Virus record (IMG/VR): IMGVR_UViG_3300025012_000029
Location: 32,001 to 96,000 of that record
Length of the DNA stretch: 64,000 bases
Strand: one strand, 5' to 3'
Source: a virus
Taxonomy: Duplodnaviria; Caudoviricetes
Shown here: positions 421-45,816 of the stretch, one piece after another
How the letters are laid out: the number at the start of each line of letters is the position of its first letter
Position numbering within the stretch: position 1 is the first letter of the stretch
Notes under the pieces: model-generated
Databases searched by the model: none
The model's input: the letters and a program-made list of their open reading frames with translations, nothing else
Told to the model about the DNA's origin: nothing
Translations under genes and position numbers: made by a program

Positions 421-3400
421 TTAAGATCCACATGAACCTCCTTTATTCATAGCGCATGCGTCTCCATATTCTAAATATGTTTCTCCAACATGCTTCATAG
501 CAAGAGAATATTTTACTGGGGTAAGAGGCTGTCCACCACGAGCACCATCTGGGTAACAGGTAATTCCTCTCAATTTTGGAAGATAATTTATTAAAATATC
601 TCCAAATTTTCTAACAGTATCTTCATTGTTATCAGCAGAACCCCATGGAGGAAGGTTGATAGTGGAACTGATCCCATGGTCAACAAATCGTTGTACCCAA
701 GCTTGGAATTCTATTCTTCGTTCAACGTTCTTTGCTAAATCATACGCATCTTCTATTGAATCTGGATCGAGGTTATTTTTTTCTATTAGACGTTTTGCAG
801 TAGGATCCAACACATATTGATATTCAATCAATTCTGGTCCTTTTTTATAACGTCTTTTATAACTAACGCAGAAAATTGGCTCAATGCCCGTTGTAGTTTC
901 CGACACAATTCCTATAGTTCCATTTGGAGCAATTGCTCTAGTTTTAATCGGACTAGTTAATTCCCACTTTTCAGCATATTCATGAGCAATTTCTGTACTA
1001 GTGCTGTAAATTTTCAAATACTGTTCTAGTTCTGGGTCGGGTCCGTACTTTTTTCCTCTCATAAGCAACCATTCATGAATGCCCATTAATCCGAGTCCTA
1101 GGCGCCTATTCTTCGAACGAACTTGATCTACTTTGGCATAAGGAACGTCTGAATAGACAGTGCCAGCCAACAAAAAACAAGTCCCTAATTCTACTAGGTC
1201 TTTCATTTCTTCTAGCGAAGATACTCTGGCAAGATTAATACTGCCAAGATTGCAAATATCTGAATCATCGCGCGATGTTACCTCAGTGCATTGACCAGTC
1301 AAAACACCATCAAAAACTCCAGTATGATTTTTAGGTTCATTAAAACAATAAACATTTTCTTCTATACCTCCTTCAGAAACTGATACTACAAAAACAAATT
1401 GACTAGCGTCTCTGTTTGGAGATTTGTCAAACGACAAACGTTCACATTTTAAACCCAATTCTTTCAAATTTTGTATTTGTTGCGCGCCGATTAGCAATCT
1501 ATAAAGATCTTTACAATAATATTCTTTTAGTCCTCCTTCCGCATCGGGAAGCATTCTAAATCCAGCTTTGTGTCCTAATGTTACTTTACTATTTATTCCT
1601 ATCGTAGAAAGCATCTTCTGAGCATCTAAAAGAAAATTTTTATCAACGGAGCCTATTTGGCATCCGCCTTCTTTTAATTCAGTTCCATCTCCATCTATCA
1701 ATCCAGCCAACCAATTTAATTTTCCATTCAAGTTCCACTCAAGTGGAACAAAAGATTTCAAATATTTTTCAAAATCTGGTCTAACAGTCGTTTTACTATT
1801 GCTGCTGTGAAAATTTTTATTTTCTTTTATCGAAAGGCGACTCAAACAGCAATATTTTGTGTCGTACACTGAAAAGAAATTGTAATCGTCCATTCCTTCG
1901 GCAGAAAGGAAGCCTTGTGTGTACGCTTCTTTTGCATCAACATCCTCTCCTTCTTTTATTATTGGAAATGTCCCTTTAATCAATTTCATTCCTGGCTGAA
2001 GATTGTAGGCTTCCACTTTTTCAGAAGCTCCATGATAATCTTTTGAAATAATAAATTTATGATATTCAGTGCATCTCAACACCCTTCCGTCACTTAATAC
2101 AACATCAACCATTGGTTGCATTCGTCCAGTTAGTTTTATTTCAACATTTGACCATTCGAACCCGTTCCATACGTCAATTGACTGGTTAACCAATGATGAA
2201 ATTGGTCGATAACCATTTTTAGTTAGAATTTCCGTTTCGCCCGAAACACATGCATTCCTCAGGGTTTCACCGGAATTATCACCAATATCTACTGAAAATC
2301 CTGGCTCACCAGTTTCTAGCATATTTCTGACGACCAACCAATAAATTGCTTGAGAATGGGAATGTTGTGGATGTTTCTCGTCATAGAAGGCTTTAAAAAA
2401 AACATCATCTAATAGAACAGAAATATTCGTCATATCCAATGGAGCGGGAAAATTAAAATCCTTCTTTTTTAAAGATTTGACATCCTCAGTCCAATCTTTG
2501 AGTTTAACAAATTTATATATGTCGGCATGGCTCCAATTTAGTCCAGACCAAATTGCCGAGTTATGCACAAGATATCCATTGCAGAAAAATTGATTTTTGT
2601 TTTCTACTTCAATATCATATGTTTCAACGATTCTTCCTTCCTCGATTCCTAAAATTTTAATAGGGGTAAAATTTAAATCTTTTTTAATAACACGTTCTAT
2701 CATTTCAATACTAACGGCAACATTTTTGTCATGATGAAGATTTCTAGGTCTTTTTTCAAATGATGCATTAATCAAACTGCCATCAAAAGAATAAGAAAAT
2801 TGTTCTTTCGTTCCAGAATTTTCATAAATGTCCCCTTTCAAAATAAAAGATCCAATTAGTTTTTTAAGTTTTAGAAGTTGCTTGGTATTACAAACATTTA
2901 ATTGATATAAAGATTTCCATTTTCCAATTTCTTTTCTTACAAGTTTAATTCTGGAAACAATTCCCAATGACGCCAATAGTGATTGTAATTGATTTAAGAA
3001 TTCTGGATAAATCGACGATGCAATATTTATTGGGCGAGACGATAAACTTCCATCTGAATCAACAATTCCAGCAATGTATGCACACCTAATTTCTGGCCTC
3101 GCACACATTATACATTCTGGTACGTCAATTGAAACATTTGGTTTTTTAAACCACGATTGCAAATAAGTAGCCAACTGCACAGACGAGCATTTAACATTCC
3201 ATAGTTTTCCATCACCTGGTGATGATATAACGTTTACTCCAAATCTTTCCAATTGTTTTATAGCTTTATCTTTAATTTCTGGGTAATCAAAAGAACAAGC
3301 AATACTCACTCGGCCGTGAAGTTTGTTTTGTTTATCTTTGCCCAAATAAGCATAGCCATCTCCGTGAATCAACCCCAACAACCAAGCTATACCAGAGTCT

Positions 3401-4248
3401 AGTTCGGGAATTTTTATATCTATTATAGACGTGCAATGAATTGATTTTTCATACGAAAAATTTGGTAATTTTGTAGGACCGAATTCCAGCAATTTTCCAT
3501 TAAAAATCAATCTATCTTGGTTCGAAAGGTCTTTGGCTTTTTTCCACTCAAATTCTCCGAAACAATTAGTCAACACAGCCACTCTGTGATTTTCAGTGCA
3601 TTCAAAAAATCCAGTTTGAGTTTTAATTTTTATAGTTTTTTGCTGTCCTTGATCAAATATGTTCAACACTTTTTCAAATCCATCAAATGTTTGAACCAAA
3701 TCTTCAGTTGTTATATCTTCTATCTTTTTTAACCCATACAAAGTATGAACTAGAGAGCCTTTCGGGAGACACCTTCTCGATCCTCCCTGCATAACTCCTC
3801 TACCAACTTCATTAATCATCTGCATAAGTGCCGTTGGTCCGGTTGCCTTGCCTCCGGTTTTTCTAATTGGTTTCCCTTCCGGTCTTATTTTTGAATAATC
3901 AACTCCAATTCCTGCCCCTGTCATTAAAGCCATCGACGACTTATGTAATAAATCCGACCAACCTTCACGAGAATCTTCTACACTCAGCATAAGACAATTT
4001 TGAGTTTGGTGATATGGGCGCCCAGAGGCATATAGGTATCGTCCTCCAGGAATGAATTTTCTATCTCTTATTGCTATATGAACTCTTTCAGATAGAGACT
4101 TTGAAGCGTTAACTGACTTCATAACATGTTTTGCCACTCTGTAGGATATGTTATCCCAATTTTCCAAAGTTCCATCTTTTAATGGATGTGCATATCGCTG
4201 CTCTGTTATTGTTTTCGCAAAAACACTCATATCGTTTTCAAAATTCAT
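421..4248 (-). CDS. nrdJ: class II (adenosylcobalamin-dependent) ribonucleotide reductase with two inteins; about 551 aa after splicing
   Basis: PGGR, QGGSRR/SA, NA/CTE (NxCxE), CNLGSINL, GLGLMG, APNGT, GITCYPDGARGGQPL motifs; C-terminal Cys pair; no class Ia YY motif; no ATP cone. Confidence 0.88.
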   Translation of the reverse strand: MNFENDMSVFAKTITEQRYAHPLKDGTLENWDNISYRVAKHVMKSVNASKSLSERVHIAIRDRKFIPGGRYLYASGRPYHQTQNCLMLSVEDSREGWSDLLHKSSMALMTGAGIGVDYSKIRPEGKPIRKTGGKATGPTALMQMINEVGRGVMQGGSRRCLPKGSLVHTLYGLKKIEDITTEDLVQTFDGFEKVLNIFDQGQQKTIKIKTQTGFFECTENHRVAVLTNCFGEFEWKKAKDLSNQDRLIFNGKLLEFGPTKLPNFSYEKSIHCTSIIDIKIPELDSGIAWLLGLIHGDGYAYLGKDKQNKLHGRVSIACSFDYPEIKDKAIKQLERFGVNVISSPGDGKLWNVKCSSVQLATYLQSWFKKPNVSIDVPECIMCARPEIRCAYIAGIVDSDGSLSSRPINIASSIYPEFLNQLQSLLASLGIVSRIKLVRKEIGKWKSLYQLNVCNTKQLLKLKKLIGSFILKGDIYENSGTKEQFSYSFDGSLINASFEKRPRNLHHDKNVAVSIEMIERVIKKDLNFTPIKILGIEEGRIVETYDIEVENKNQFFCNGYLVHNSAIWSGLNWSHADIYKFVKLKDWTEDVKSLKKKDFNFPAPLDMTNISVLLDDVFFKAFYDEKHPQHSHSQAIYWLVVRNMLETGEPGFSVDIGDNSGETLRNACVSGETEILTKNGYRPISSLVNQSIDVWNGFEWSNVEIKLTGRMQPMVDVVLSDGRVLRCTEYHKFIISKDYHGASEKVEAYNLQPGMKLIKGTFPIIKEGEDVDAKEAYTQGFLSAEGMDDYNFFSVYDTKYCCLSRLSIKENKNFHSSNSKTTVRPDFEKYLKSFVPLEWNLNGKLNWLAGLIDGDGTELKEGGCQIGSVDKNFLLDAQKMLSTIGINSKVTLGHKAGFRMLPDAEGGLKEYYCKDLYRLLIGAQQIQNLKELGLKCERLSFDKSPNRDASQFVFVVSVSEGGIEENVYCFNEPKNHTGVFDGVLTGQCTEVTSRDDSDICNLGSINLARVSSLEEMKDLVELGTCFLLAGTVYSDVPYAKVDQVRSKNRRLGLGLMGIHEWLLMRGKKYGPDPELEQYLKIYSTSTEIAHEYAEKWELTSPIKTRAIAPNGTIGIVSETTTGIEPIFCVSYKRRYKKGPELIEYQYVLDPTAKRLIEKNNLDPDSIEDAYDLAKNVERRIEFQAWVQRFVDHGISSTINLPPWGSADNNEDTVRKFGDILINYLPKLRGITCYPDGARGGQPLTPVKYSLAMKHVGETYLEYGDACAMNKGGSCGS
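1291..2250 (-). mobile_element. RNR intein 2 (aa 667-986, 320 aa), LAGLIDADG type, ending in Gln
   Basis: RNA|CVSGETEIL start; QGFLSAEG and LAGLIDGDG motifs; ends GVLTGQ|CTE. Confidence 0.9.
2560..3771 (-). mobile_element. RNR intein 1 (aa 160-563, 404 aa), LAGLIDADG type
   Basis: SRR|CLPKGS start; LGLIHGDG and IAGIVDSDG motifs; ends YLVHN|S. Confidence 0.93.
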
Positions 4249-4709
4249 TAAACAATTCCTCCATTATTTTCTTTATATTTCTTGTATTTTGCTCTCATGC
4301 GGCGTTTTTGCTCTTCCACGTCCACTAACGATGAAATATCTTTACGAGGATCAAAATCTCCCAAAATACGTATATCTACATTTGATGGATCCATAAAAAT
4401 ATTAAATGTCATTCCATCTGGACCATTTCTATTTTTGCAGACAGACAATCTTCCTGTATTTTTGTTTTTATCTTCTTGCGTTCTCGCAAGTCCAAGAGTA
4501 AGGTATGAGCCAAAATTTTTATTTAGTGCTTCTGATGTTTGTTCCATTTGTACGGTATTTGAACTCAAACCTGAATTATGGGAATATATATCATTTGCAA
4601 AAAAATAGTGATGCTTTTCCAAACATATATCGATTGTATCTTCTTCGTCACATTCTTCAATGTTTGTTATTTCCATCAAATCAAAATCGTTTAAATTAAG
4701 TTTATCCAT
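4248..4709 (-). CDS. split-intein C part (45 aa, 4575-4709) fused to the C-terminal fragment of DnaB/gp41-like helicase
   Basis: MDKL...TIDICLEKHHYFFANDIYSHN|SG, followed by helicase motif KNRNGPDG. Confidence 0.92.
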   Translation of the reverse strand: MDKLNLNDFDLMEITNIEECDEEDTIDICLEKHHYFFANDIYSHNSGLSSNTVQMEQTSEALNKNFGSYLTLGLARTQEDKNKNTGRLSVCKNRNGPDGMTFNIFMDPSNVDIRILGDFDPRKDISSLVDVEEQKRRMRAKYKKYKENNGGIV

Positions 4710-5727
4710 TTAAAAACTCTACTATCTTATCAATTGTACCGTAAGGATCTTTTTTGTAATTTTTATCGTTAATCCTTAGTGTTGAAAATCCTCTTTTTGT
4801 TAATATTTCATCTCTTTCCTTATCCTTGTCTTCGTTGTTTTTATGCCAATAATTTCCGTCAAATTCAATAATTTTATTTTCATATAAAAAATCTAATGAA
4901 TAAAACTTAATATATTTTCCATCTTTATATATTTTAATTATTTTTTCCCCGTTACATTCTTTAAAAAATGTCATCTCTTTCTTCAAATCTAACCTTTGCA
5001 CAACGTCCCAAAATAATTTCTGAGAAATTTTCGAAAACCCAACACTATCTCGATTAGATGCTGCCTTCTCAGAAAGAGTACGCATTTTGTCTTTGTACTG
5101 ATCCCATTTTTCCTTTCCTAATGTCTCGCCAAAATCTTTCACAAATTTTTCAAGGGAAAAAGCATATTTTTGTTTTTCTGATTTTTTATTCCATCTAATT
5201 AAAGCTTCTTCTTTGCCGTGCTTTATAAACAAACTTTCATGAGAAAGTCCATTATCCCATTTTCTGTCAAGTTTTCTTTTTTCAATAGAACTTTTCCATT
5301 TTTCTAAATAAGAAGAATGTTTTTCTTTTGCCGCATCCTCTCCTATTCTTTCTGAAAGATTCTGCAAATTGTGCCAATTTTTTTGTTTTATTAAATTTTC
5401 ATAATATTCGATACCGTGTTTTTTAATAATAATTTCTTTATTATTCTTACGCTTGTTTGTCTGCGAATTCAAGATTTCTTCCCATCTGTCGCCATAACGT
5501 ATTTTGTATACTTCTTCTGTCATACAATTTCTTCCAAATTTTCTAGATGCTTCAATTCTCTCTAGCCAATCCCCATCGACATCATATTTTGTAAAATTTA
5601 ATATCAAGAATTTCTTATTTTTAAAATCTTTTCTTGACAAATTTTCATAGATTTTTTTTATTTGAAAAATTTGCTCATCGCTTAATGACAAATCTCGCAA
5701 CCATAAATAATTTTTTATAAAGTTCAT
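4702..5727 (-). CDS. free-standing Vsr/DUF559-like homing endonuclease between the helicase halves
   Basis: C-terminal DFLYENKIIEFDGNYWH...DKERD...GFSTLRI; about five K/R-Y/H-G-x-E helical repeats upstream. Confidence 0.85.
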   Translation of the reverse strand: MNFIKNYLWLRDLSLSDEQIFQIKKIYENLSRKDFKNKKFLILNFTKYDVDGDWLERIEASRKFGRNCMTEEVYKIRYGDRWEEILNSQTNKRKNNKEIIIKKHGIEYYENLIKQKNWHNLQNLSERIGEDAAKEKHSSYLEKWKSSIEKRKLDRKWDNGLSHESLFIKHGKEEALIRWNKKSEKQKYAFSLEKFVKDFGETLGKEKWDQYKDKMRTLSEKAASNRDSVGFSKISQKLFWDVVQRLDLKKEMTFFKECNGEKIIKIYKDGKYIKFYSLDFLYENKIIEFDGNYWHKNNEDKDKERDEILTKRGFSTLRINDKNYKKDPYGTIDKIVEFLNG

Positions 5728-7058
5728 TATTTTTTTATCAAAAATTTATCCCCAATTTTTAATCCAGACTCTAAAGACTTATCCCCACTATCCGTTGGAA
5801 AAATATGTTTTTTAGAAACTTTCACAGACAATCCGTTTTTTAGCGTTATTTTATAGACTTTTTGGCGAGAGGAAAAAATATCAATAATTTTTTCGTAACC
5901 ATAAACAGTTTTTGTCATCATGCCTATCTTAGATTGTCCGATTTCAATTGTATGTTCTTTTTGATCTTCTCCTAATATATAAATAGGAGTATCAACAGAA
6001 AAACACCTATTTGTTTGCGAAGCGGTCCAGCCAACTATTTGATCTTCTTGACAAACTGCTTCAAACTCATCATAAGTTTCACCTATTTCATAACGTAATT
6101 CTTTTCTTATAGAAGAAGATTTGAGGAGATCGAGATAGTCTAGTTCGATCATATCCGGGATAAATCCTTGACTTTTAAGACGAGAAAGATGATTTTTTAC
6201 TGTCATCATCGATGCGCTCTTTTTTGGATACTGTTTGATTATTAATTGACCAGTGATTTTAGTCAACTCTTCTAAAACTTTTTCTTTGTGGTTGCGCAAT
6301 TCATCGATAGGTATTCCAGTCAAACAAGAATCAAATCTAAGTCCAATTACTTCTGCCGATAATTCAAGGGTGTAATAAACAACATTTTGTCCTCGTTTTA
6401 GTGCTTGTACGCCCAAATGAACGAGGCATAAACTTTTACCTGCGCCTGTCGGCGCTAAAATCAAACCATATTCGCCTCGACCTAAGCCACCGCTTGTAAG
6501 TTCATCAAGTCGATCCCACCCCGTCGGAATGGGATTACGAACATTTTCAACGTAACGTTTTTCGAAATCTTTGATAAAATCATGCCCAGTGTCAATTTCT
6601 CCTCCAGCTTTTAGAGCAGTATTGATAACTTTGCTAATTTCGTCAAACGAATTCGTTTTGAGGAGAGAAGCAGATTTAATCATAGCTTCGTGCAACTTTT
6701 GTTTTCTGCAGAAATCTAACGCTTCATTCTGAATGAAATTTCCATCCTCAATATGATCGGAAGCTAACATGCGGGCATAAAAGTCTCTTACTTGTTTTTG
6801 AAGAATTTCATTCTCTTTTTCTAAGGATGTCCGAAGAATTATCTCCATTGTATCTCTACTAGGATGAACTTTATATTGTTTTTTATAATCAAAAATTCTT
6901 GAAACAAATCCTTGGAGATATCTTGATTCAAAATATTCAACATTTAATACTTCAATCATTCTATCGGCAAAGACTCTATCATCCAATATTAAAAAAGCAA
7001 GTCTCTCTTGAAATGAGCGGCCGAAGGTTGAAAAAGTCGGAGCATCAACTATATTCAT
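5727..7058 (-). CDS. DnaB/gp41-like replicative helicase N fragment plus split-intein N part (92 aa, 5730-6005)
   Basis: Walker A APTGAGKS, LDYLDLL, ASQTNR|CFSVDT; block B VSKKHIF; ORF stops with no intein C-terminus. Confidence 0.92.
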   Translation of the reverse strand: MNIVDAPTFSTFGRSFQERLAFLILDDRVFADRMIEVLNVEYFESRYLQGFVSRIFDYKKQYKVHPSRDTMEIILRTSLEKENEILQKQVRDFYARMLASDHIEDGNFIQNEALDFCRKQKLHEAMIKSASLLKTNSFDEISKVINTALKAGGEIDTGHDFIKDFEKRYVENVRNPIPTGWDRLDELTSGGLGRGEYGLILAPTGAGKSLCLVHLGVQALKRGQNVVYYTLELSAEVIGLRFDSCLTGIPIDELRNHKEKVLEELTKITGQLIIKQYPKKSASMMTVKNHLSRLKSQGFIPDMIELDYLDLLKSSSIRKELRYEIGETYDEFEAVCQEDQIVGWTASQTNRCFSVDTPIYILGEDQKEHTIEIGQSKIGMMTKTVYGYEKIIDIFSSRQKVYKITLKNGLSVKVSKKHIFPTDSGDKSLESGLKIGDKFLIKK

Positions 7059-25367: not shown

Positions 25368-26195
25368 TCACGGTTTATATTTTCCATAACCTGGAAAAAT
25401 AGGATTATCTCCCAATATTACTTTTTCTCTTGGAAATTTTATTTCTACAGCATTTTCTCTTACTGTTACATATGGATATTTTTCATTATCCCCAGCAGAT
25501 ATTAAATAACCAAAAACTTTAATCGAAATAGTCGTTTCAAATTTTCGTGACTCTTCAGTCATATCATCTAAATTATTTTCTTGTTTAAATTCTTCCTGAA
25601 TAAATGCTTCGTATTTATGTCCGTCTCTTTCCAACATAACTCTATGAACAGAACCAGGCATAGTGATAAATGGCTGTAAAATAGTATTCATTTGTTGTTG
25701 ATATTCTGTTATTATTTTAACTTCATACATAATTTCGTTGTATACTGGCTGTGGAATGCTATAAATTTCGTAAACTATTTTTTCATTTTTCTTCGAAGAC
25801 GGAAAGTTTATTTTCCCCACTTTTCTGAACGCGTCAGCATTCGCAAAATTAGCTGTTTTATCCTGCTTGATTCTTTTGGCAATTGTTATAGAACCACCTT
25901 TGTAGTCGTTGATTTTGGGAATATTGGCAAAAAATTTGCCCTTACTTTCGTTATTCTTTGTAATAGATTCTCGTTTGATACTAATAATTGGATATAATAA
26001 AGTTCCTGCTAGATCACGCTCAGTTGCGTTATCTTTGGATTGCTTATATCTCTCATTTCCTGCCCAAACAACAGGAACCTTTTCCCATCCTTTATGAGTT
26101 TCACAAAAAGAATTCATTTTATCATTTATGAAATCATAAACAGAGAAATCTATAGTTTCTAATGTAGATGGCAGTATTTGTATACGTTTTTCCAT
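25368..26195 (-). CDS. tail terminator/neck protein (gp15-like)
   Basis: ETIDFS, YPIISI, PQPV..Y pattern; between neck genes and sheath. Confidence 0.6.
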   Translation of the reverse strand: MEKRIQILPSTLETIDFSVYDFINDKMNSFCETHKGWEKVPVVWAGNERYKQSKDNATERDLAGTLLYPIISIKRESITKNNESKGKFFANIPKINDYKGGSITIAKRIKQDKTANFANADAFRKVGKINFPSSKKNEKIVYEIYSIPQPVYNEIMYEVKIITEYQQQMNTILQPFITMPGSVHRVMLERDGHKYEAFIQEEFKQENNLDDMTEESRKFETTISIKVFGYLISAGDNEKYPYVTVRENAVEIKFPREKVILGDNPIFPGYGKYKP

Positions 26196-26198
26196 TTA

Positions 26199-26915
26199 TT
26201 ATACAAACTCCGCATTGTGCATCTGATCAAATAGATGTCCACTTACTTTTGTCAAAAACTGTTCAAAATCTGCTCTCCCGTCAAATCCTGCTTGTAATGT
26301 TTTATCTTCTATTGCCGCTGATAAATCTTTATGATTTTTTGTAAGTTTTTCCATCAATGATTTCATCTTGCTAATTTCATCTGGGTTTAAATAATATGCT
26401 TTATTTATTGTATTTTTACTTACATAACAATCATCTTCTTCTGGTGGTGTTTTTGGACTCCCAATATCGTCAAAATCTTTAGACGTTGCTGGCAATCTGT
26501 CATATACTTTTTGTGCTAATTTACTTGTTCCGCCTCTATCTCCTGTCGTAGGTTGTGGAGCAGAATATGCCATTATCATTTTATAAAGTAGAGTTCCATA
26601 TCCTTTATTTCGATACATTTTATTTACTGCTGAAAGTCCTATCTCTTTTGCTCCATAGCAATTACCTTTGTCTGAAAAAATAGGTTCACTCTTTATCATT
26701 CCAATGGCAATACCTTCATTAACAAAGTGGTATACTGTATTTTGAACAGATTTGGTTATATACTCATCTATGCTATCAACAAGCATTTTTCCATCATACA
26801 ATAGAAAATAAACATATTTTCCGTCACCTTTAGCTCTAATTTGTAAACACCAACCCTGTGACTCAGATATGTCTTCTTTCAGATACTTTCGGAAGTTTTC
26901 GAATAATAGATACAT
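26199..26915 (-). CDS. GNAT-like protein with N-terminal MYLLFENFRKYLKE peptide
   Basis: SAVNKMYRNKGYGTLLY matches GNAT motif A (R/QxxGxG). Confidence 0.55.
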   Translation of the reverse strand: MYLLFENFRKYLKEDISESQGWCLQIRAKGDGKYVYFLLYDGKMLVDSIDEYITKSVQNTVYHFVNEGIAIGMIKSEPIFSDKGNCYGAKEIGLSAVNKMYRNKGYGTLLYKMIMAYSAPQPTTGDRGGTSKLAQKVYDRLPATSKDFDDIGSPKTPPEEDDCYVSKNTINKAYYLNPDEISKMKSLMEKLTKNHKDLSAAIEDKTLQAGFDGRADFEQFLTKVSGHLFDQMHNAEFV

Positions 26916-26995
26916 TATTGTTCACTCCAAGATTCGCCTCTGATAATTCTATAAATTAGGTTAGTTATTTTATATATTCCGCTTTTATTGTCCAT
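26915..26995 (-). pseudogene. 26-aa GIY-YIG scar (N- and C-termini fused)
   Basis: MDNKSGIYKITNLI+YRIIRGESWSEQ; ATG overlaps the upstream gene end, TAATG overlap with the downstream gene. Confidence 0.7.
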
Positions 26996-27473
26996 TGAAA
27001 ATATCCTTCCTAGCTTGCAAACACTTCGCTGAAATCTCTACTTTATTATTTACTTGTCCAAACATTTCTCTTGGTTCTATGAGGTTCAAAATTTCATAAT
27101 AGTTACATCCATAGGCAATGAAGTCTCCTTCTCTCACAAAAAGATTTTGGTCCTCTGTCAATCTTCTTTTATGAAAATGAACAATGAGATTTGCTAAATG
27201 GTCTACTCCATAGTTTGTAGTTGTAGATGGATTATCTTTCCACTCAATTAGAACATGAACATGAACAGGAGGAAGAAATGTTTTTTTGATCGATTCTCCA
27301 TAGAGAGAATGATAATTTGTGTGTTCTAAAGAAATTGGATAATATAAGATTTGTTGTCCTATAATTTTCTCTAATAATTCATCATTGACTTGCTTTACGA
27401 AGTCTCTTTCTTTCTGTCCCACATAGAGAGGTGAAGGAGGAGCATCTAATACATCCCATTTATTTTCAGACAT
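26985..27473 (-). CDS. neck/head-closure protein (gp14-like)
   Basis: YGESIKK, VREGDF, YYEI pattern; position in neck cluster. Confidence 0.6.
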   Translation of the reverse strand: MSENKWDVLDAPPSPLYVGQKERDFVKQVNDELLEKIIGQQILYYPISLEHTNYHSLYGESIKKTFLPPVHVHVLIEWKDNPSTTTNYGVDHLANLIVHFHKRRLTEDQNLFVREGDFIAYGCNYYEILNLIEPREMFGQVNNKVEISAKCLQARKDIFNGQ

Positions 27474-27476
27474 AAG

Positions 27477-28196
27477 TTATTCTTCCTTAACATCCGAAGT
27501 GGATAATTTTTCTAAATATCTGGATATAATCTTTATTCCGTCTTTCGATAACGATACTTTATTTCCGGTAGATAGTTGTCCTAAATAATACATTTTAACC
27601 GGCTGCACTGACCATAATTCTTGTGTTTCTTTGGCATCTGGAACACATCCATAAAATTGATTTCTCCATTTAGGTGGAAGCAGTGATGGCGCGATGAAAT
27701 TATAATCGAAACTCCTAGCTAGGCTGGGTGGTTGTTCTTCTAACCAATCTCTAATATTAAAATTCCCTCCATATGGAGAAGCATTTGTTCGAGGGCATTT
27801 TTTAATGTGCGCTTTCAAAGAAATTGTTGGAATATCGTCATCTGATATCTCAACAAAATCTACTGCATAAACATACAATATGGTTTTTTGATGTGACGAC
27901 AACTGTAAAGCTTCTAGTGCTTTTTCTACAGAAGGAGCTAATGAAACTCTATTTGTAAAATCATCTTCAATAACATTTCCCTCAGCATCGGAATACGGAA
28001 TAGCAGGTGTCCTTGGAGTGAATCTAAAAGGTTTATTTCCGTTTAAACGCTCTGAAGATAAATGAAAATACTTAAAAATCTTTTTTAATGTCATAGAAGA
28101 GATAGTATTATCGCTTTTAGCGTCTTTTTTGATAACTGCTTCCATCAGTGGCTTGTCAAGATAGTTCCTAAAATTTTCAAATAATATATAAAGCAT
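27477..28196 (-). CDS. possible ADP-ribosyltransferase-fold protein with N-terminal MLYILFENFRNYL peptide
   Basis: FHLSS, FTPRTP, ED...RVSLAPS, ELWS resemble ART core strands; ATG at 28196 preferred over TTG at 28211. Confidence 0.4.
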   Translation of the reverse strand: MLYILFENFRNYLDKPLMEAVIKKDAKSDNTISSMTLKKIFKYFHLSSERLNGNKPFRFTPRTPAIPYSDAEGNVIEDDFTNRVSLAPSVEKALEALQLSSHQKTILYVYAVDFVEISDDDIPTISLKAHIKKCPRTNASPYGGNFNIRDWLEEQPPSLARSFDYNFIAPSLLPPKWRNQFYGCVPDAKETQELWSVQPVKMYYLGQLSTGNKVSLSKDGIKIISRYLEKLSTSDVKEE

Positions 28197-28201
28197 ATTT
28201 C

Positions 28202-28246
28202 TTATATCCAAATTTTATTGATTATTTTATAAATTCCACTTTTCAT
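28202..28246 (-). pseudogene. 14-aa GIY-YIG scar
   Basis: ATG AAA AGT GGA ATT TAT AAA ATA ATC AAT AAA ATT TGG ATA TAA = MKSGIYKIINKIWI. Confidence 0.65.
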
Positions 28247-28254
28247 ATCATTTC

Positions 28255-29556
28255 TTAACCAACAAATATTGAACGTGGGACATAAGTTTGAACTCTACCA
28301 GCCTGCTCAACAATGTTCGCTTCCTTTTCTGCCAACTTATCATAAGTTGTCTCTTCCAACTGAAGTTTTAATTCTTCTCTCAACGCTTCCATTTCTTCTT
28401 TTGCTTGTGCAGCAAGTTCGGCATAATTCAATGTTATATCATTTCCTGGAATTGGAATTGTTGTCATTTTTCCTCTGGCATGAGAAAGCATCTCTTTAGC
28501 AATTGCCAAAGAAAATCTCCTTATCCACTGTTTGCCCATGCTGTTAATAGAATCATATGGAATGTTTTCAAATGGAAGATTATTGAGATTATTGACTCCT
28601 CCGATGCCAGCACTACCTCCAAGAGAATTTCCCATTGAATCCACATACTCGGTTAATGGATTTGGATCAATTGAAAAATCAAACCAAATCTTTTTTGGAG
28701 ACAACCCGGACGGAACTGGGAAAAGTCTCAATTTGTTATTTTTGAGTTCATAAGTATAATGAGAAGCTCTTGTATAAAGATTCATTTCGTATGTCATTGC
28801 TTGTAGTTTATTTTGCCAAGCAGGAACAACATCAAATGTTGAATCATCGGCATATTGTCCGTATGTGTTGAGATTTCCTACGACTGTCAAACCACCATAA
28901 TATCCAAAGAATCTCCACATAGCGTGTGGCGATTTATACCAAACTTTATTTATTCTTATCCTTGCTCCATTGGCACTATTGACATAAGAAGTATAATCAA
29001 CGCTTCCTATTGCTGCCGATGATGATACAATAGCTTGTAAATCATAATCTTGTATTCCATCAATAATATCAATTGAAGCAGAAAAATAAGGAACAGTTCC
29101 TCCAATACCAGCTTCATAAGCTAATTCATCTCCAACCCTTCTAGCATATGCCACTGTAAATCGTGGAAATTTTAGAGCAGCATTTGAACCGCTCATTGCA
29201 GAACCAGAAACTATTTGTCCATCTGAGTTAAATGAGCCCGTGGGAGAACCCAAAAAGCTTGATAAAGAGCTTTTAGCTTGGTATAAATTAATAATATATG
29301 AATATTCTAATACAGCGCGCTCATAAGCAGCATAAATATTACAGTCCGTTAATTCTATATCAAGAATATCGCCAGCAAGCATCTTGAATGTGAAAGATAC
29401 TTGGTCGTAAGCTCCGGAAATGAAGTTGGAAGAATTAGCATAAATTCCAATTGGAAGGGAGTCTACGATATTATCATATGATCCGGTTCTTGGAAGTGTA
29501 ATCCTAGACGTTATTGAACGTGGAGTTAAATCTGGTGGAGTTTGACAAGTTGACAT
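28255..29556 (-). CDS. neck/head-tail adaptor (gp13-like)
   Basis: DIELTD, WIRRFSLA, GNDITLN pattern; first gene after MCP; ATG at 29556. Confidence 0.7.
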   Translation of the reverse strand: MSTCQTPPDLTPRSITSRITLPRTGSYDNIVDSLPIGIYANSSNFISGAYDQVSFTFKMLAGDILDIELTDCNIYAAYERAVLEYSYIINLYQAKSSLSSFLGSPTGSFNSDGQIVSGSAMSGSNAALKFPRFTVAYARRVGDELAYEAGIGGTVPYFSASIDIIDGIQDYDLQAIVSSSAAIGSVDYTSYVNSANGARIRINKVWYKSPHAMWRFFGYYGGLTVVGNLNTYGQYADDSTFDVVPAWQNKLQAMTYEMNLYTRASHYTYELKNNKLRLFPVPSGLSPKKIWFDFSIDPNPLTEYVDSMGNSLGGSAGIGGVNNLNNLPFENIPYDSINSMGKQWIRRFSLAIAKEMLSHARGKMTTIPIPGNDITLNYAELAAQAKEEMEALREELKLQLEETTYDKLAEKEANIVEQAGRVQTYVPRSIFVG

Positions 29557-31388: not shown

Positions 31389-32726
31389 TTATTGTTTTTT
31401 TGAAATTCCAGCTAATATCTGCATTCTTTCCTTTTGTGGATTAATGCTTTCTGTAAGTGATTCCCTCGGTCTAATAGAATTGAAATTATTTTTACTAATT
31501 GCTTCATTTAGTGTTTTAGGCAATGGACGACCATCAACCTTAGACGTAAATGATTTAAACAATGTTTCAAAAACAACTTTCACTTCGTTAACAGAGTTAA
31601 TCTTTGAAATAGCTTCGACAATTTTTTGTTTTTGTCGCTCATTCAAGGAGACGCTTTCCAAAACACGATTTTTATACATTAATTGTGCATTTTGTATATT
31701 GAGTTCTTCGAGTTTCTTCGAAGCACCCATAGCAATACCTTTAATCTTATTATATTCAAGAATAATGGATTTTACTTGCTTTTTAAGAGATTGGTTTTGT
31801 TCCTGTAATGCCTCAACAGCTTTTTTTAGTTCGGCATTTTCTTCTGCAACTTCTGTATCTTGAACGTGAGCCAATTCAATTTCTCCAGATTGAATTCTTT
31901 CTGCATCAGTTGCGTGTCCTGGATGTCCATGAGGAACTGTATGAACATCTACTTGTAGCATTTCCATTAAATCATTTAATGATTCTTCTGAAAGTTCTTC
32001 CATATCGCTATCAACTTCTTCAGCTAAACCGGCCGTGGGTTGTTCAATTGGATTTTCATCTTCGGGACTAGCTGTATCTTCAGTTCCAGCAGAACTTTGT
32101 AATTGAGAAATAAGAGATTCTAGTTCCTGTTTTTCTTCAGGAACATTAATCTTTCCTACTGTTGATTCTAGTTGATTAATTGCGCTATCCAATAGACTTC
32201 TTGGCACAGGTTTTCCGGCATATGCCAATGAACCAACTTTATAAACTGGATCTCCCATTCCCATATGATACATATGTAATTCAGGTCCCAATTGAGCTGG
32301 AATCTCTACTCCATCGGAATCTTCTTCCATAAACATTCCATCTTCTTCCATTGTAGGAGCAAGAGGATCGCCCATTTGTCCAGGGAGTCCACCTAATTCG
32401 TCTCCACCCGAACTCATTTGAGAGAGTTCGTCGAAATCAATTTCAATTTCTTCTTCGTCTTCTGGACATGGGCAAGTAGATTCCCCATCAGTGGCAGCCA
32501 ATGTTAAATCTTTTGCCAGAGGATCTTCTGTTGGCGGCATGCCCATAGAGTCTCCACCAAGCGGATCTGCTAATGCTAAATCTTCATCATCCTGCTCTAA
32601 CAAAGATTCTACTGCTTCCTTAATTTGAGGAGCATACCTTTCAAGAACCATTAGTTCAGCATTTTTAAGTGCTGCCTCTTTTAAAGCCACTGCATCTAGG
32701 ATTGCCTGATCGAGCATAGAACTCAT
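31389..32726 (-). CDS. prohead scaffolding/core protein (gp22-like)
   Basis: Acidic; C-terminal coiled coil ending RMQILAGI; directly upstream of MCP. Confidence 0.8.
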   Translation of the reverse strand: MSSMLDQAILDAVALKEAALKNAELMVLERYAPQIKEAVESLLEQDDEDLALADPLGGDSMGMPPTEDPLAKDLTLAATDGESTCPCPEDEEEIEIDFDELSQMSSGGDELGGLPGQMGDPLAPTMEEDGMFMEEDSDGVEIPAQLGPELHMYHMGMGDPVYKVGSLAYAGKPVPRSLLDSAINQLESTVGKINVPEEKQELESLISQLQSSAGTEDTASPEDENPIEQPTAGLAEEVDSDMEELSEESLNDLMEMLQVDVHTVPHGHPGHATDAERIQSGEIELAHVQDTEVAEENAELKKAVEALQEQNQSLKKQVKSIILEYNKIKGIAMGASKKLEELNIQNAQLMYKNRVLESVSLNERQKQKIVEAISKINSVNEVKVVFETLFKSFTSKVDGRPLPKTLNEAISKNNFNSIRPRESLTESINPQKERMQILAGISKKQ

Positions 32727-43631: not shown

Positions 43632-43876
43632 TTAATTTGATGACGGAAAAGTGGGAGGAGAAAGTTTTTCTTTGTCCTGGACTTCTTCTATCACTTCGAA
43701 TAGAAAATTTTCTTTTCCGTATATATTATAAGAATTTTGAAGATGGTCGTTGTCGTGTTTTTGGTTTTTAAATAACGAAAATGATAACTTTTTCTGCTAC
43801 TTAAACAGGAAGCGCTTCCAATGTAAACTTTTCCATTGGCCAAATTGCGAATTTGATATATTCCATGTTTAGGCAT
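43632..43876 (-). pseudogene. frameshifted, truncated GIY-YIG endonuclease
   Basis: GIYQIRNLANGKVYIGSA; homology continues in the -1 frame (NQKHDNDHLQNSYNIYGKENFLFEVIEE) and then ends at 43632. Confidence 0.85.
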
Positions 43877-45213: not shown

Positions 45214-45816
45214 TTATTTCCTCAACACTTCATTCAAAGCATTTAAGATGCGATCTGATTTTCCTAATATTACATGATTTTTTACTTCTGTTAAGTGCAT
45301 AAATGCTCCTTGTGTTGATGGCTCAGAAACGACATCAAAACAGATCAATTGGAAATCATCTTCAACCATTAATCCGCCTTGAATTTCCTTCACAGAACCT
45401 AAACCCCTAGAAGAAAGTCCTATAGCAACGCCATCATTTACAAGCGAGCGCAATTGTTGTCCTGGGGTTCCTGATAAGACTTTTAATTTTATCATTACAT
45501 CTTTGCCTTCCATCCATATATCAGTAATTACATGAGACACTTTTTCAAGCTCTACTACAGTAGAATCAGGATGATCTAATTGTCCTAATGATCGTTTTTC
45601 TGTAACTACTCTCTTATAATTCTCCACTTCACGACGCAATACATGTTCTGGATAAATTCTGCCATTTCCATTTTTGTGGTCGGCTCTCTGAGCTATTCCC
45701 GTTAAAATTATGGCTCCATTTTTTACTTCTAACTTCTCTGATTCTGAGAGTAAGTCGGTACATGTACCGCCGTCGCATAATTTATAAAATTCACGTAGTA
45801 AAAATCGTTTAGTCAT
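45214..45816 (-). CDS. prohead maturation protease (T4 gp21-like)
   Basis: NGNGRIYP, GQLDHP, GLSSRGLGS, FDVVSEPS motifs. Confidence 0.93.
   Translation of the reverse strand: MTKRFLLREFYKLCDGGTCTDLLSESEKLEVKNGAIILTGIAQRADHKNGNGRIYPEHVLRREVENYKRVVTEKRSLGQLDHPDSTVVELEKVSHVITDIWMEGKDVMIKLKVLSGTPGQQLRSLVNDGVAIGLSSRGLGSVKEIQGGLMVEDDFQLICFDVVSEPSTQGAFMHLTEVKNHVILGKSDRILNALNEVLRK

Follow-up and report, generated by a model that had tools for sequence, protein, structure and literature searches.

The stretch of DNA analysed here, hereafter the window, comprises 64,000 nucleotides (nt; positions 32,001 to 96,000) of the IMG/VR record IMGVR_UViG_3300025012_000029, a groundwater-metagenome virus genome of 201,144 bp with 34% G+C. 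The phage has a T4-like head and neck module, with Gp23, gp13, sheath and a gp21-type prohead protease, and this work concerns two very short open reading frames (ORFs) lodged between its neck genes. The original prediction, made from the letters of the sequence, had placed them at 26915-26995 and 28202-28246 and regarded them as scars of GIY-YIG homing endonuclease genes; both exist there, on a strand that it had not named, the minus strand, along which all genes in that part of the window run. In the order in which the genes are read, the gp13-like neck/head-completion gene (28255..29556; PF26809 Phage_T4_gp13, assigned through the identical protein of population contigs, and a head-tail adaptor in PHROG) is followed by stub 2 (28202..28246; 14 codons, MKSGIYKIINKIWI and a stop codon), by an accessory gene of 239 amino acids (aa) that we call B239 (27477..28196), and by C162, a conserved 162-aa neck-module gene at the gp14 position (26985..27473). 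Stub 1 comes next (26915..26995; 26 codons, MDNKSGIYKITNLIYRIIRGESWSEQ and a stop codon), followed by the 238-aa accessory gene D238 (26199..26915) and by E275 (25368..26195), a conserved 275-aa gene that in most relatives stands directly after the 162-aa gene. The start/stop proximity of a relay-type ORF is found in both cases: stub 1 overlaps its neighbours on both sides, its ATG (26995-26993) lying 11 nt within the 3' end of C162 (stop 26987-26985) and its TAA (26917-26915) sharing bases with the D238 start (TAATG), while stub 2 starts 8 nt past the gp13-like stop and ends 5 nt ahead of the B239 ATG (28196). Both stubs are the same in 18 population contigs from several samples, and they recur in identical form in a second groundwater study; a comparison of the DNA of the stub region with 50,697 phage records gave no match.

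The ends of the stubs were compared with those of complete enzymes, among them that of an intact 222-aa homing endonuclease gene of the same genome (54855..55523, minus strand), which proved to encode a protein with GIY-YIG, NUMOD3 and HTH_7 domains, as had been supposed, and which served as the head and tail reference. As a null for end similarity, the 30 residues at either end of three endonucleases were used to score every six-frame peptide of the 201-kb genome. Straight after their ATG, both stubs carry the N-terminal GIY motif (SGIYKITN in stub 1, SGIYKIIN in stub 2), and only 1.8e-4 and 2.2e-4 of genome peptides, respectively, score equally well against the intact enzyme. Stub 1 reads as the head MDNKSGIYKITNL joined to the tail IYRIIRGESWSEQ and a stop, and the tail resembles the end of the intact enzyme, TYRIVNKELWNFI (fraction 8.6e-4), with which it shares the stop offset (Trp plus three residues); the tail pattern Y[KR]I[IV][NRK][GKN]E.W has two matches in the six-frame genome, the end of the intact enzyme and stub 1. 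Stub 2 reads MKSGIYKIIN plus KIWI and a stop, its tail INKIWI matching LNKLWI of the endonuclease of one relative (L058; L-numbers are labels of the compared loci) with a fraction of 2.4e-5, which is the best of three references and concerns only 4-6 residues. In both stubs the head-tail junction is in frame, and scores so far above the genome-wide null bear out the claim that each stub joins, in frame, the GIY start to the end of the terminal helix-turn-helix (HTH). Because the tail of stub 2 rests on these few residues and on the best of three references, its assignment is likely but weaker than that of stub 1, whereas the head of stub 2 appears secure. An origin of this tail by duplication of the gp13 3' end (IFVG versus IWI, each before a stop) was rejected, the DNA score of 23 lying within the background of 265 upstream regions, which reached up to 32.

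Nothing of the enzyme lies between these ends. No residues separate the GIY...N segment from the HTH end in either stub; the YIG motif and the catalytic Arg, His/Tyr, Glu and Asn of the core of approximately 90 residues are absent from both, and the C-terminal NUMOD3/HTH_7 module is reduced to the last 13 HTH residues in stub 1 and to the last 4-6 in stub 2. A six-frame search of the genome with PF01541 reported neither stub. On their sequence, both are remnants of endonuclease genes that have lost the catalytic core, and they encode no enzyme. The same search returned three matches, which together form a decay series within one genome: the intact gene; a frameshifted, C-terminally truncated pseudogene (43632-43876, minus strand) that reads MPKHGIYQIRNLANGKVYIGS, changes frame and continues with HDNDHLQNSYNIYGKENF, lacks the DNA-binding C-terminus and lies in a 359-nt gap upstream of a 1103-aa gene; and a 101-aa ORF located 75 kb past the end of the window (genome positions 171223-171528, minus strand). 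The last is an in-frame collapse in which the N-terminal half of the GIY-YIG catalytic domain is joined to the HTH end. It overlaps both neighbours, running over the upstream stop codon and sharing 11 nt with the 916-aa gene that follows, and it represents an intermediate stage of collapse.

Relatives of the phage show what the two junctions look like when nothing has been left there. In 55 IMG/VR relatives, whose 162-aa protein is 52-60% identical to C162, the order is gp13, 162-aa gene and 275-aa gene, with gaps of approximately 10-60 nt and with neither stubs nor 239- or 238-aa genes at these junctions. Exact-word searches of IMG/VR for relatives of B239 and D238 returned none, and such relatives came only from a large protein index. 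Among them, L056 has a B239 homolog after gp13 with a 0-nt gap and two D238 homologs 8 nt after the 162-aa gene, L058 has a B239 homolog 8 nt after gp13, and L194, which encodes the closest 162-aa protein (73% identical), has a D238 homolog (43% identical) 11 nt after that gene, in all cases without a stub. The gp13-gp14 junction is also tight in L196, L199 and the cultured Microcystis phage Mel-JY01, and co-occurring relatives in the aquifer sample skip both stub cassettes. The expected empty sites, in which close relatives keep the flanking genes and lack the stub, are therefore provided by L056, L058 and L194, and since the same flanking genes adjoin there with gaps of 0-11 nt, the stubs are, as judged from gene order, inserted where relatives have the two genes directly side by side. 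Relative to most relatives, each stub forms an insertion together with its downstream gene, a point on which the original prediction was silent.

Two motif samples of IMG/VR were examined for occupied and partly deleted alleles, the first a pattern scan for DNA encoding GIYKITN (118 stretches, three of which, L185, L171 and L095, are distant relatives of this neck module) and the second comprising 111 new KSGIYKI loci. Between gp13 and the 162-aa homolog, L185 carries a full 321-aa GIY-YIG gene. L171, whose DNA is 68-85% identical to that of L185, keeps only endonuclease residues 1-19 and 264-320, a head-to-tail deletion of 743 nt, with its junction in an imperfect repeat of 10 nt (AAtCACAAAc / AAgCACAAAg), having removed the remainder and left the ends out of frame, and L095 has a 67-aa in-frame head-tail collapse between the same two genes. 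Together with the homology of the ends and the empty sites, these alleles support the earlier proposal that several hundred nt were lost from GIY-YIG genes. The accompanying suggestion of deletion at microhomology is directly visible in the comparison of L171 with L185 and, with regard to the focal sites, is plausible for stub 2, in which the head (IY+I.N) and the tail (Y+I.N) encode similar peptides. In L171, a 318-aa gene (3850-4806, minus strand), 100 aa of which resemble D238 at 32% identity, overlaps the endonuclease remnant, which lies directly 5' of it; this gene is absent from the sister locus L185, which has the full endonuclease gene.

The motif samples also contained remnants of other kinds. 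L167 and the pair L224/L252 are head-only stubs, and L124 has a head followed by a decayed remainder. The stub of L224/L252 (approximately 3087-3167 of the reverse complement, minus strand, in L224; 884-964 in L252) consists of eight head codons, ATGAAAAGTGGAATTTATAAAATA, which are the same as the head of stub 2 at 24/24 nt, and it lies past the major capsid gene and its terminator, 10 nt ahead of the next ATG. A full 248-aa GIY-YIG gene occupies the corresponding post-capsid position in L110. Many other short GIY ORFs of the IMG/VR survey were considered and discarded as stubs, because they were either genes interrupted by in-frame stop codons or fortuitous matches within other genes. The GIY-YIG genes of L175, L179, L154, L159, L137, L104 and L105 have one or many in-frame stops in frames that are otherwise continuous, which probably marks phages with a reassigned stop codon and not pseudogenes.

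The position of the translation signals suggests why the extreme ends should have lasted. The start site of D238, ttGGAGtgaacaataATG, has its Shine-Dalgarno sequence GGAG at 26928-26925 (minus strand), formed by the Trp-Ser codons of stub 1 and followed, after 9 nt, by the ATG at 26915; this is the modal spacing in the genome, found in 11 of the 50 GGAG-bearing starts. The stop codon of the intact endonuclease likewise overlaps the GGAG of the next gene, and in both stubs a Trp codon stands exactly 11 nt ahead of the downstream ATG. In the empty-site relatives the downstream gene has its Shine-Dalgarno sequence within or at the upstream stop. Removing the tail of a stub would be costly because the tail of an inserted endonuclease must supply the downstream Shine-Dalgarno sequence.

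We consider it probable that the stubs are collapsed endonuclease genes whose ends have been kept by their overlap with the signals of neighbouring genes, the codons between those signals being probably neutral. Free-standing GIY-YIG genes would formerly have occupied two adjacent junctions of the neck module, gp13|B239 and gp14-like|D238. From each of them a single head-to-tail deletion, probably at short imperfect repeats, would have removed an interior of approximately 600 nt, leaving the first 10-13 and the last 4-13 codons. The 5' end would persist as it contains the old endonuclease start, placed within the upstream gene's stop or beside it, and the 3' end as the following gene has its ribosome-binding site and start context there, so that a larger deletion would harm a neighbour; the extreme ends would thus survive because they overlap signals of neighbouring genes, and the codons between these signals would probably be neutral leftovers. 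At both focal sites, the deletion mechanism and constraint as the reason for retention are what we infer from these patterns.

Several observations weigh against this reading. If a gap of 2 nt is allowed, the first 34 nt of stub 2 can be aligned as well with the intact gene's head, and stub 2 could therefore be a head-only stub, given this alternative alignment and a tail of only 4-6 residues. No close relative was found in which a full endonuclease gene is flanked by B239 or D238; the full copy belongs to L185, a distant relative whose gp13 shows 34% identity in a partial alignment, for which reason the gp13-gp14 junction could have been invaded independently there. At the gp14|D238 junction no occupied allele was found. 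Relatives that carry an endonuclease gene, as had been expected, were thus found for gp13|gp14, where the gene is full in L185 and partial in L171 and L095, all of them distant, and not for gp14|D238. As regards translation signals, the Shine-Dalgarno sequence of B239 within stub 2 is weak (GGAT), and the idea that a stub supplies the downstream ribosome-binding site, which agrees at the sequence level with the GGAG of stub 1, is only weakly borne out for stub 2. Finally, approximately 55 nt of stub 1 and approximately 30 nt of stub 2 lie outside any overlap constraint.

Among the other explanations, the one that survives best holds that the in-frame mini-cistrons are themselves under selection, the ribosomes that translate them passing coupled translation on from the neck gene before them to the gene after them. 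The architecture is suitable: stub 1 has a good Shine-Dalgarno sequence (AGGAAGGA, 8 nt ahead of its ATG), starts within the upstream gene and ends in TAATG, stub 2 begins only 8 nt past the gp13 stop, and 115 of the 211 same-strand junctions of the genome are overlapping or have gaps of at most 15 nt. However, 71/211 have gaps of at least 40 nt by a crude ORF-based gene call, with downstream genes that have their own Shine-Dalgarno sequence, as D238 has a canonical one; for that reason a translational relay is possible and not obviously needed. The frame of the collapses is the other argument, since among five head-tail collapses only that of L171 is out of frame, the two stubs, L095 and the 101-aa copy all being in frame, but the focal pair was noticed because it is in frame, and the collapses found regardless of frame (L095, L171 and the 101-aa copy), two in frame and one out, are a number that can't separate selection from chance. 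Moreover, recombination between the head repeat IY-K/R-I-x-N and the tail repeat Y-R-I-V/I-N would plausibly give a product of the stub 2 type that is automatically in frame, in-frame joining being expected because both repeats encode similar in-frame peptides; and the out-of-frame collapse of L171 and the head-only stubs of L167 and L224/L252 are tolerated elsewhere. We therefore regard a selected relay as unlikely. A broader formulation, that the ends of endonuclease genes have been co-opted as devices of translation initiation or coupling and that the in-frame mini-cistron is a stable end state under selection, never lost completely, seems to us slightly more doubtful still. If it were true, stubs below annotation thresholds would mark former endonuclease sites across phages and might keep the homing site split.

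Retention of a split homing site is also the core of a proposal that we regard as improbable, namely that the scars confer immunity: an imprecise deletion would leave the site interrupted and the phage resistant to related endonucleases of co-infecting phages, at no cost of a nuclease gene. Suitable neighbours exist, as a contig at 353x coverage from the same aquifer sample carries an intact-looking GIY-YIG gene that matches the head of stub 1 at 32/37 nt and continues with ...NGKVYIG, relatives without the cassettes co-occur there, and a clean excision would restore the empty site seen in L056 and L194. Nevertheless, resistance to free-standing phage endonucleases usually results from polymorphism of the target and not from insertion (PMC2988022).

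It is very improbable that the stubs were kept as promoters, the AT-rich GIY-K-I codons (TATAAAATA) and an upstream TGGACA or ATGATA driving the downstream gene. The stubs do have sigma-70-like matches at homologous positions (TGGACA-16-TAAAAT, 10/12; ATGATA-16-TAAAAT, 9/12), and embedded promoters favour the retention of T4 seg genes (PMC2988022), but the region as a whole holds 16 promoter-like matches against 11.6 +/- 3.4 in shuffled sequences, which is no excess. A role of the GIY codons as a mimic of the T4 late promoter was likewise rejected, since the late motif TATAAATA precedes none of 221 genes and ACTATTTA, the sole enriched intergenic motif, is absent from the stubs. The latter motif is a candidate promoter element in its own right, being present in 10 of the 72 intergenic stretches that precede minus-strand genes, for example upstream of 28255-29556 and 31389-32726 of the window, and 17 times on that strand genome-wide. 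A structured RNA was also looked for at the stubs, where no notable Rfam match was obtained and the folds were no more stable than those of shuffled sequences (z +1.58 and -0.22). That random AT-rich intergenic sequence merely resembles the ends of GIY-YIG genes is scarcely credible, for although the stubs are short, the genome is AT-rich and the GIYKI matches of L180, L269 and L276 are clearly due to chance, the joint probability of head and tail in stub 1 is about 1e-7 per site, both stubs lie on the coding strand and follow an ATG directly, the corresponding junctions of relatives measuring 0-11 nt, and real endonuclease genes occur at the gp13|gp14 junction in L185, L171 and L095.

Decay of phage endonuclease genes is well documented. 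In the Xanthomonas oryzae phages Xp10, OP1 and Xop411, free-standing HNH-AP2 genes show progressive degeneration (Lee et al. 2007, PMC2248197), and, as in the genome studied here, a series from intact gene to leftover is present within one phage, which its authors read as gain followed by decay. Those remnants belong to another nuclease family, however, and are N- or C-terminal pieces and not head-to-tail fusions of 14-26 codons, and unlike the stubs they have not been described in connection with the translation signals of neighbouring genes (PMC2248197). I-TevIII of T4 is closer in form, having been inactivated by a large internal deletion while its RB3 ortholog is functional (Edgell, Gibb and Belfort 2010, PMC2988022); both ends are kept, as in the stubs, but this HNH-family gene is encoded within an intron and has left a far larger remnant. 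With respect to mechanism, the endonuclease gene gp174 of ICP1 has lost 228 bp in frame between degenerate repeats within the gene (Barth et al. 2023, PMC10055350), similar to the recombination between imperfect repeats that is proposed for stub 2 and seen in L171 (there out of frame), but in gp174 the DNA-binding region is shortened and the enzyme is probably active, whereas the stubs have lost the whole catalytic core. A parallel for retention is offered by those seg and mob genes of T4 in which promoters of essential genes downstream are embedded (Edgell et al. 2010, PMC2988022). There too, clean deletion of the selfish gene carries a cost, since it contains regulatory signals of a neighbour; those signals are promoters and the gene survives entire, in contrast to the stubs, where Shine-Dalgarno and start context are concerned and only the ends remain. 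The view that the stubs are an overlooked end state of the homing-endonuclease life cycle was consequently overstated, as such degeneration series had already been published (PMC2248197, PMC2988022, PMC10055350). They are clearly a very small example of a known decay process and not a new kind of element.

The accessory genes that follow the stubs have features of their own. D238 and B239 begin with the leaders MYLLFENFRKYLKE and MLYILFENFRNYL, respectively, which share the form M(L)Y(L/I)LFENFR(K/N)YL (26874-26915 and 28155-28196, minus strand), and in this genome an N-terminal LFENFRxYL occurs only in these two proteins, which the original prediction did not mention. Related leaders of the form (L/I/M)(F/I/M)ENWRK(F/Y)L(K/N)E, often followed by an L-x-E-like site, are present in accessory genes at the neck-gene junctions of stub-free relatives (L053 2806-3033; L056 5001, 6218 and 6929; L058 5001; L194 4501), and the leader type also occurs away from the neck junctions (L062, around 5000-5760). 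A duplicated module made of stub plus downstream leader was thus rejected, as the leader is a feature of accessory genes that is present in relatives without stubs; by its distribution, the LFENFR-type leader is a family feature and not part of the endonuclease cassette. The leader, taken together with the gp21-type protease encoded at 45214-45816 of the window, presumably resembles the capsid-targeting sequences of T4 internal proteins, and we take it to be a candidate for processing by the prohead protease. B239 is a member of a conserved family of phage proteins in which R62, S85 and E193 are invariant, and its fold matches, sub-threshold only, hint weakly at the ADP-ribosyltransferase fold (Arr, LT/CT-A, RES, ParT); D238 has a weak GNAT match in Pfam (E = 0.0033) and weak MYST/GNAT fold matches. 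The fold searches with both proteins stayed below threshold, with best Foldseek E-values of 0.018 and 0.1 and all VIA-align Z values under 3.5. In the ENA scaffold_15499 (L067/L073), which is most likely a chimeric assembly, phage neck genes with a D238 cut to 226 aa are joined to bacterial nusA, rimP and lpxD. Nuclease genes of a second type are found nearby in close relatives, where HNH-type endonuclease-like genes with a C-terminal ...KCWALNNLQPL... lie between the capsid gene and gp13 (L194 1102-2646, two in tandem; L199 2033-2674). The structural module as a whole serves selfish nuclease genes as a landing zone.

Across relatives, the gp13|gp14 junction is empty in some cases and holds in others a full gene, a collapse out of frame, an in-frame collapse of 67 codons or a stub of 14 codons, and the stubs offer a reason, at the level of sequence, for the survival of the last traces of such genes, as the tail holds the ribosome-binding site of the next gene and the head overlaps the previous one. 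Spacers of 40-80 nt in phage structural operons can thus be fossils of selfish genes. Because gene callers miss stubs this small, scans with head and tail motifs could be useful to map past endonuclease activity.

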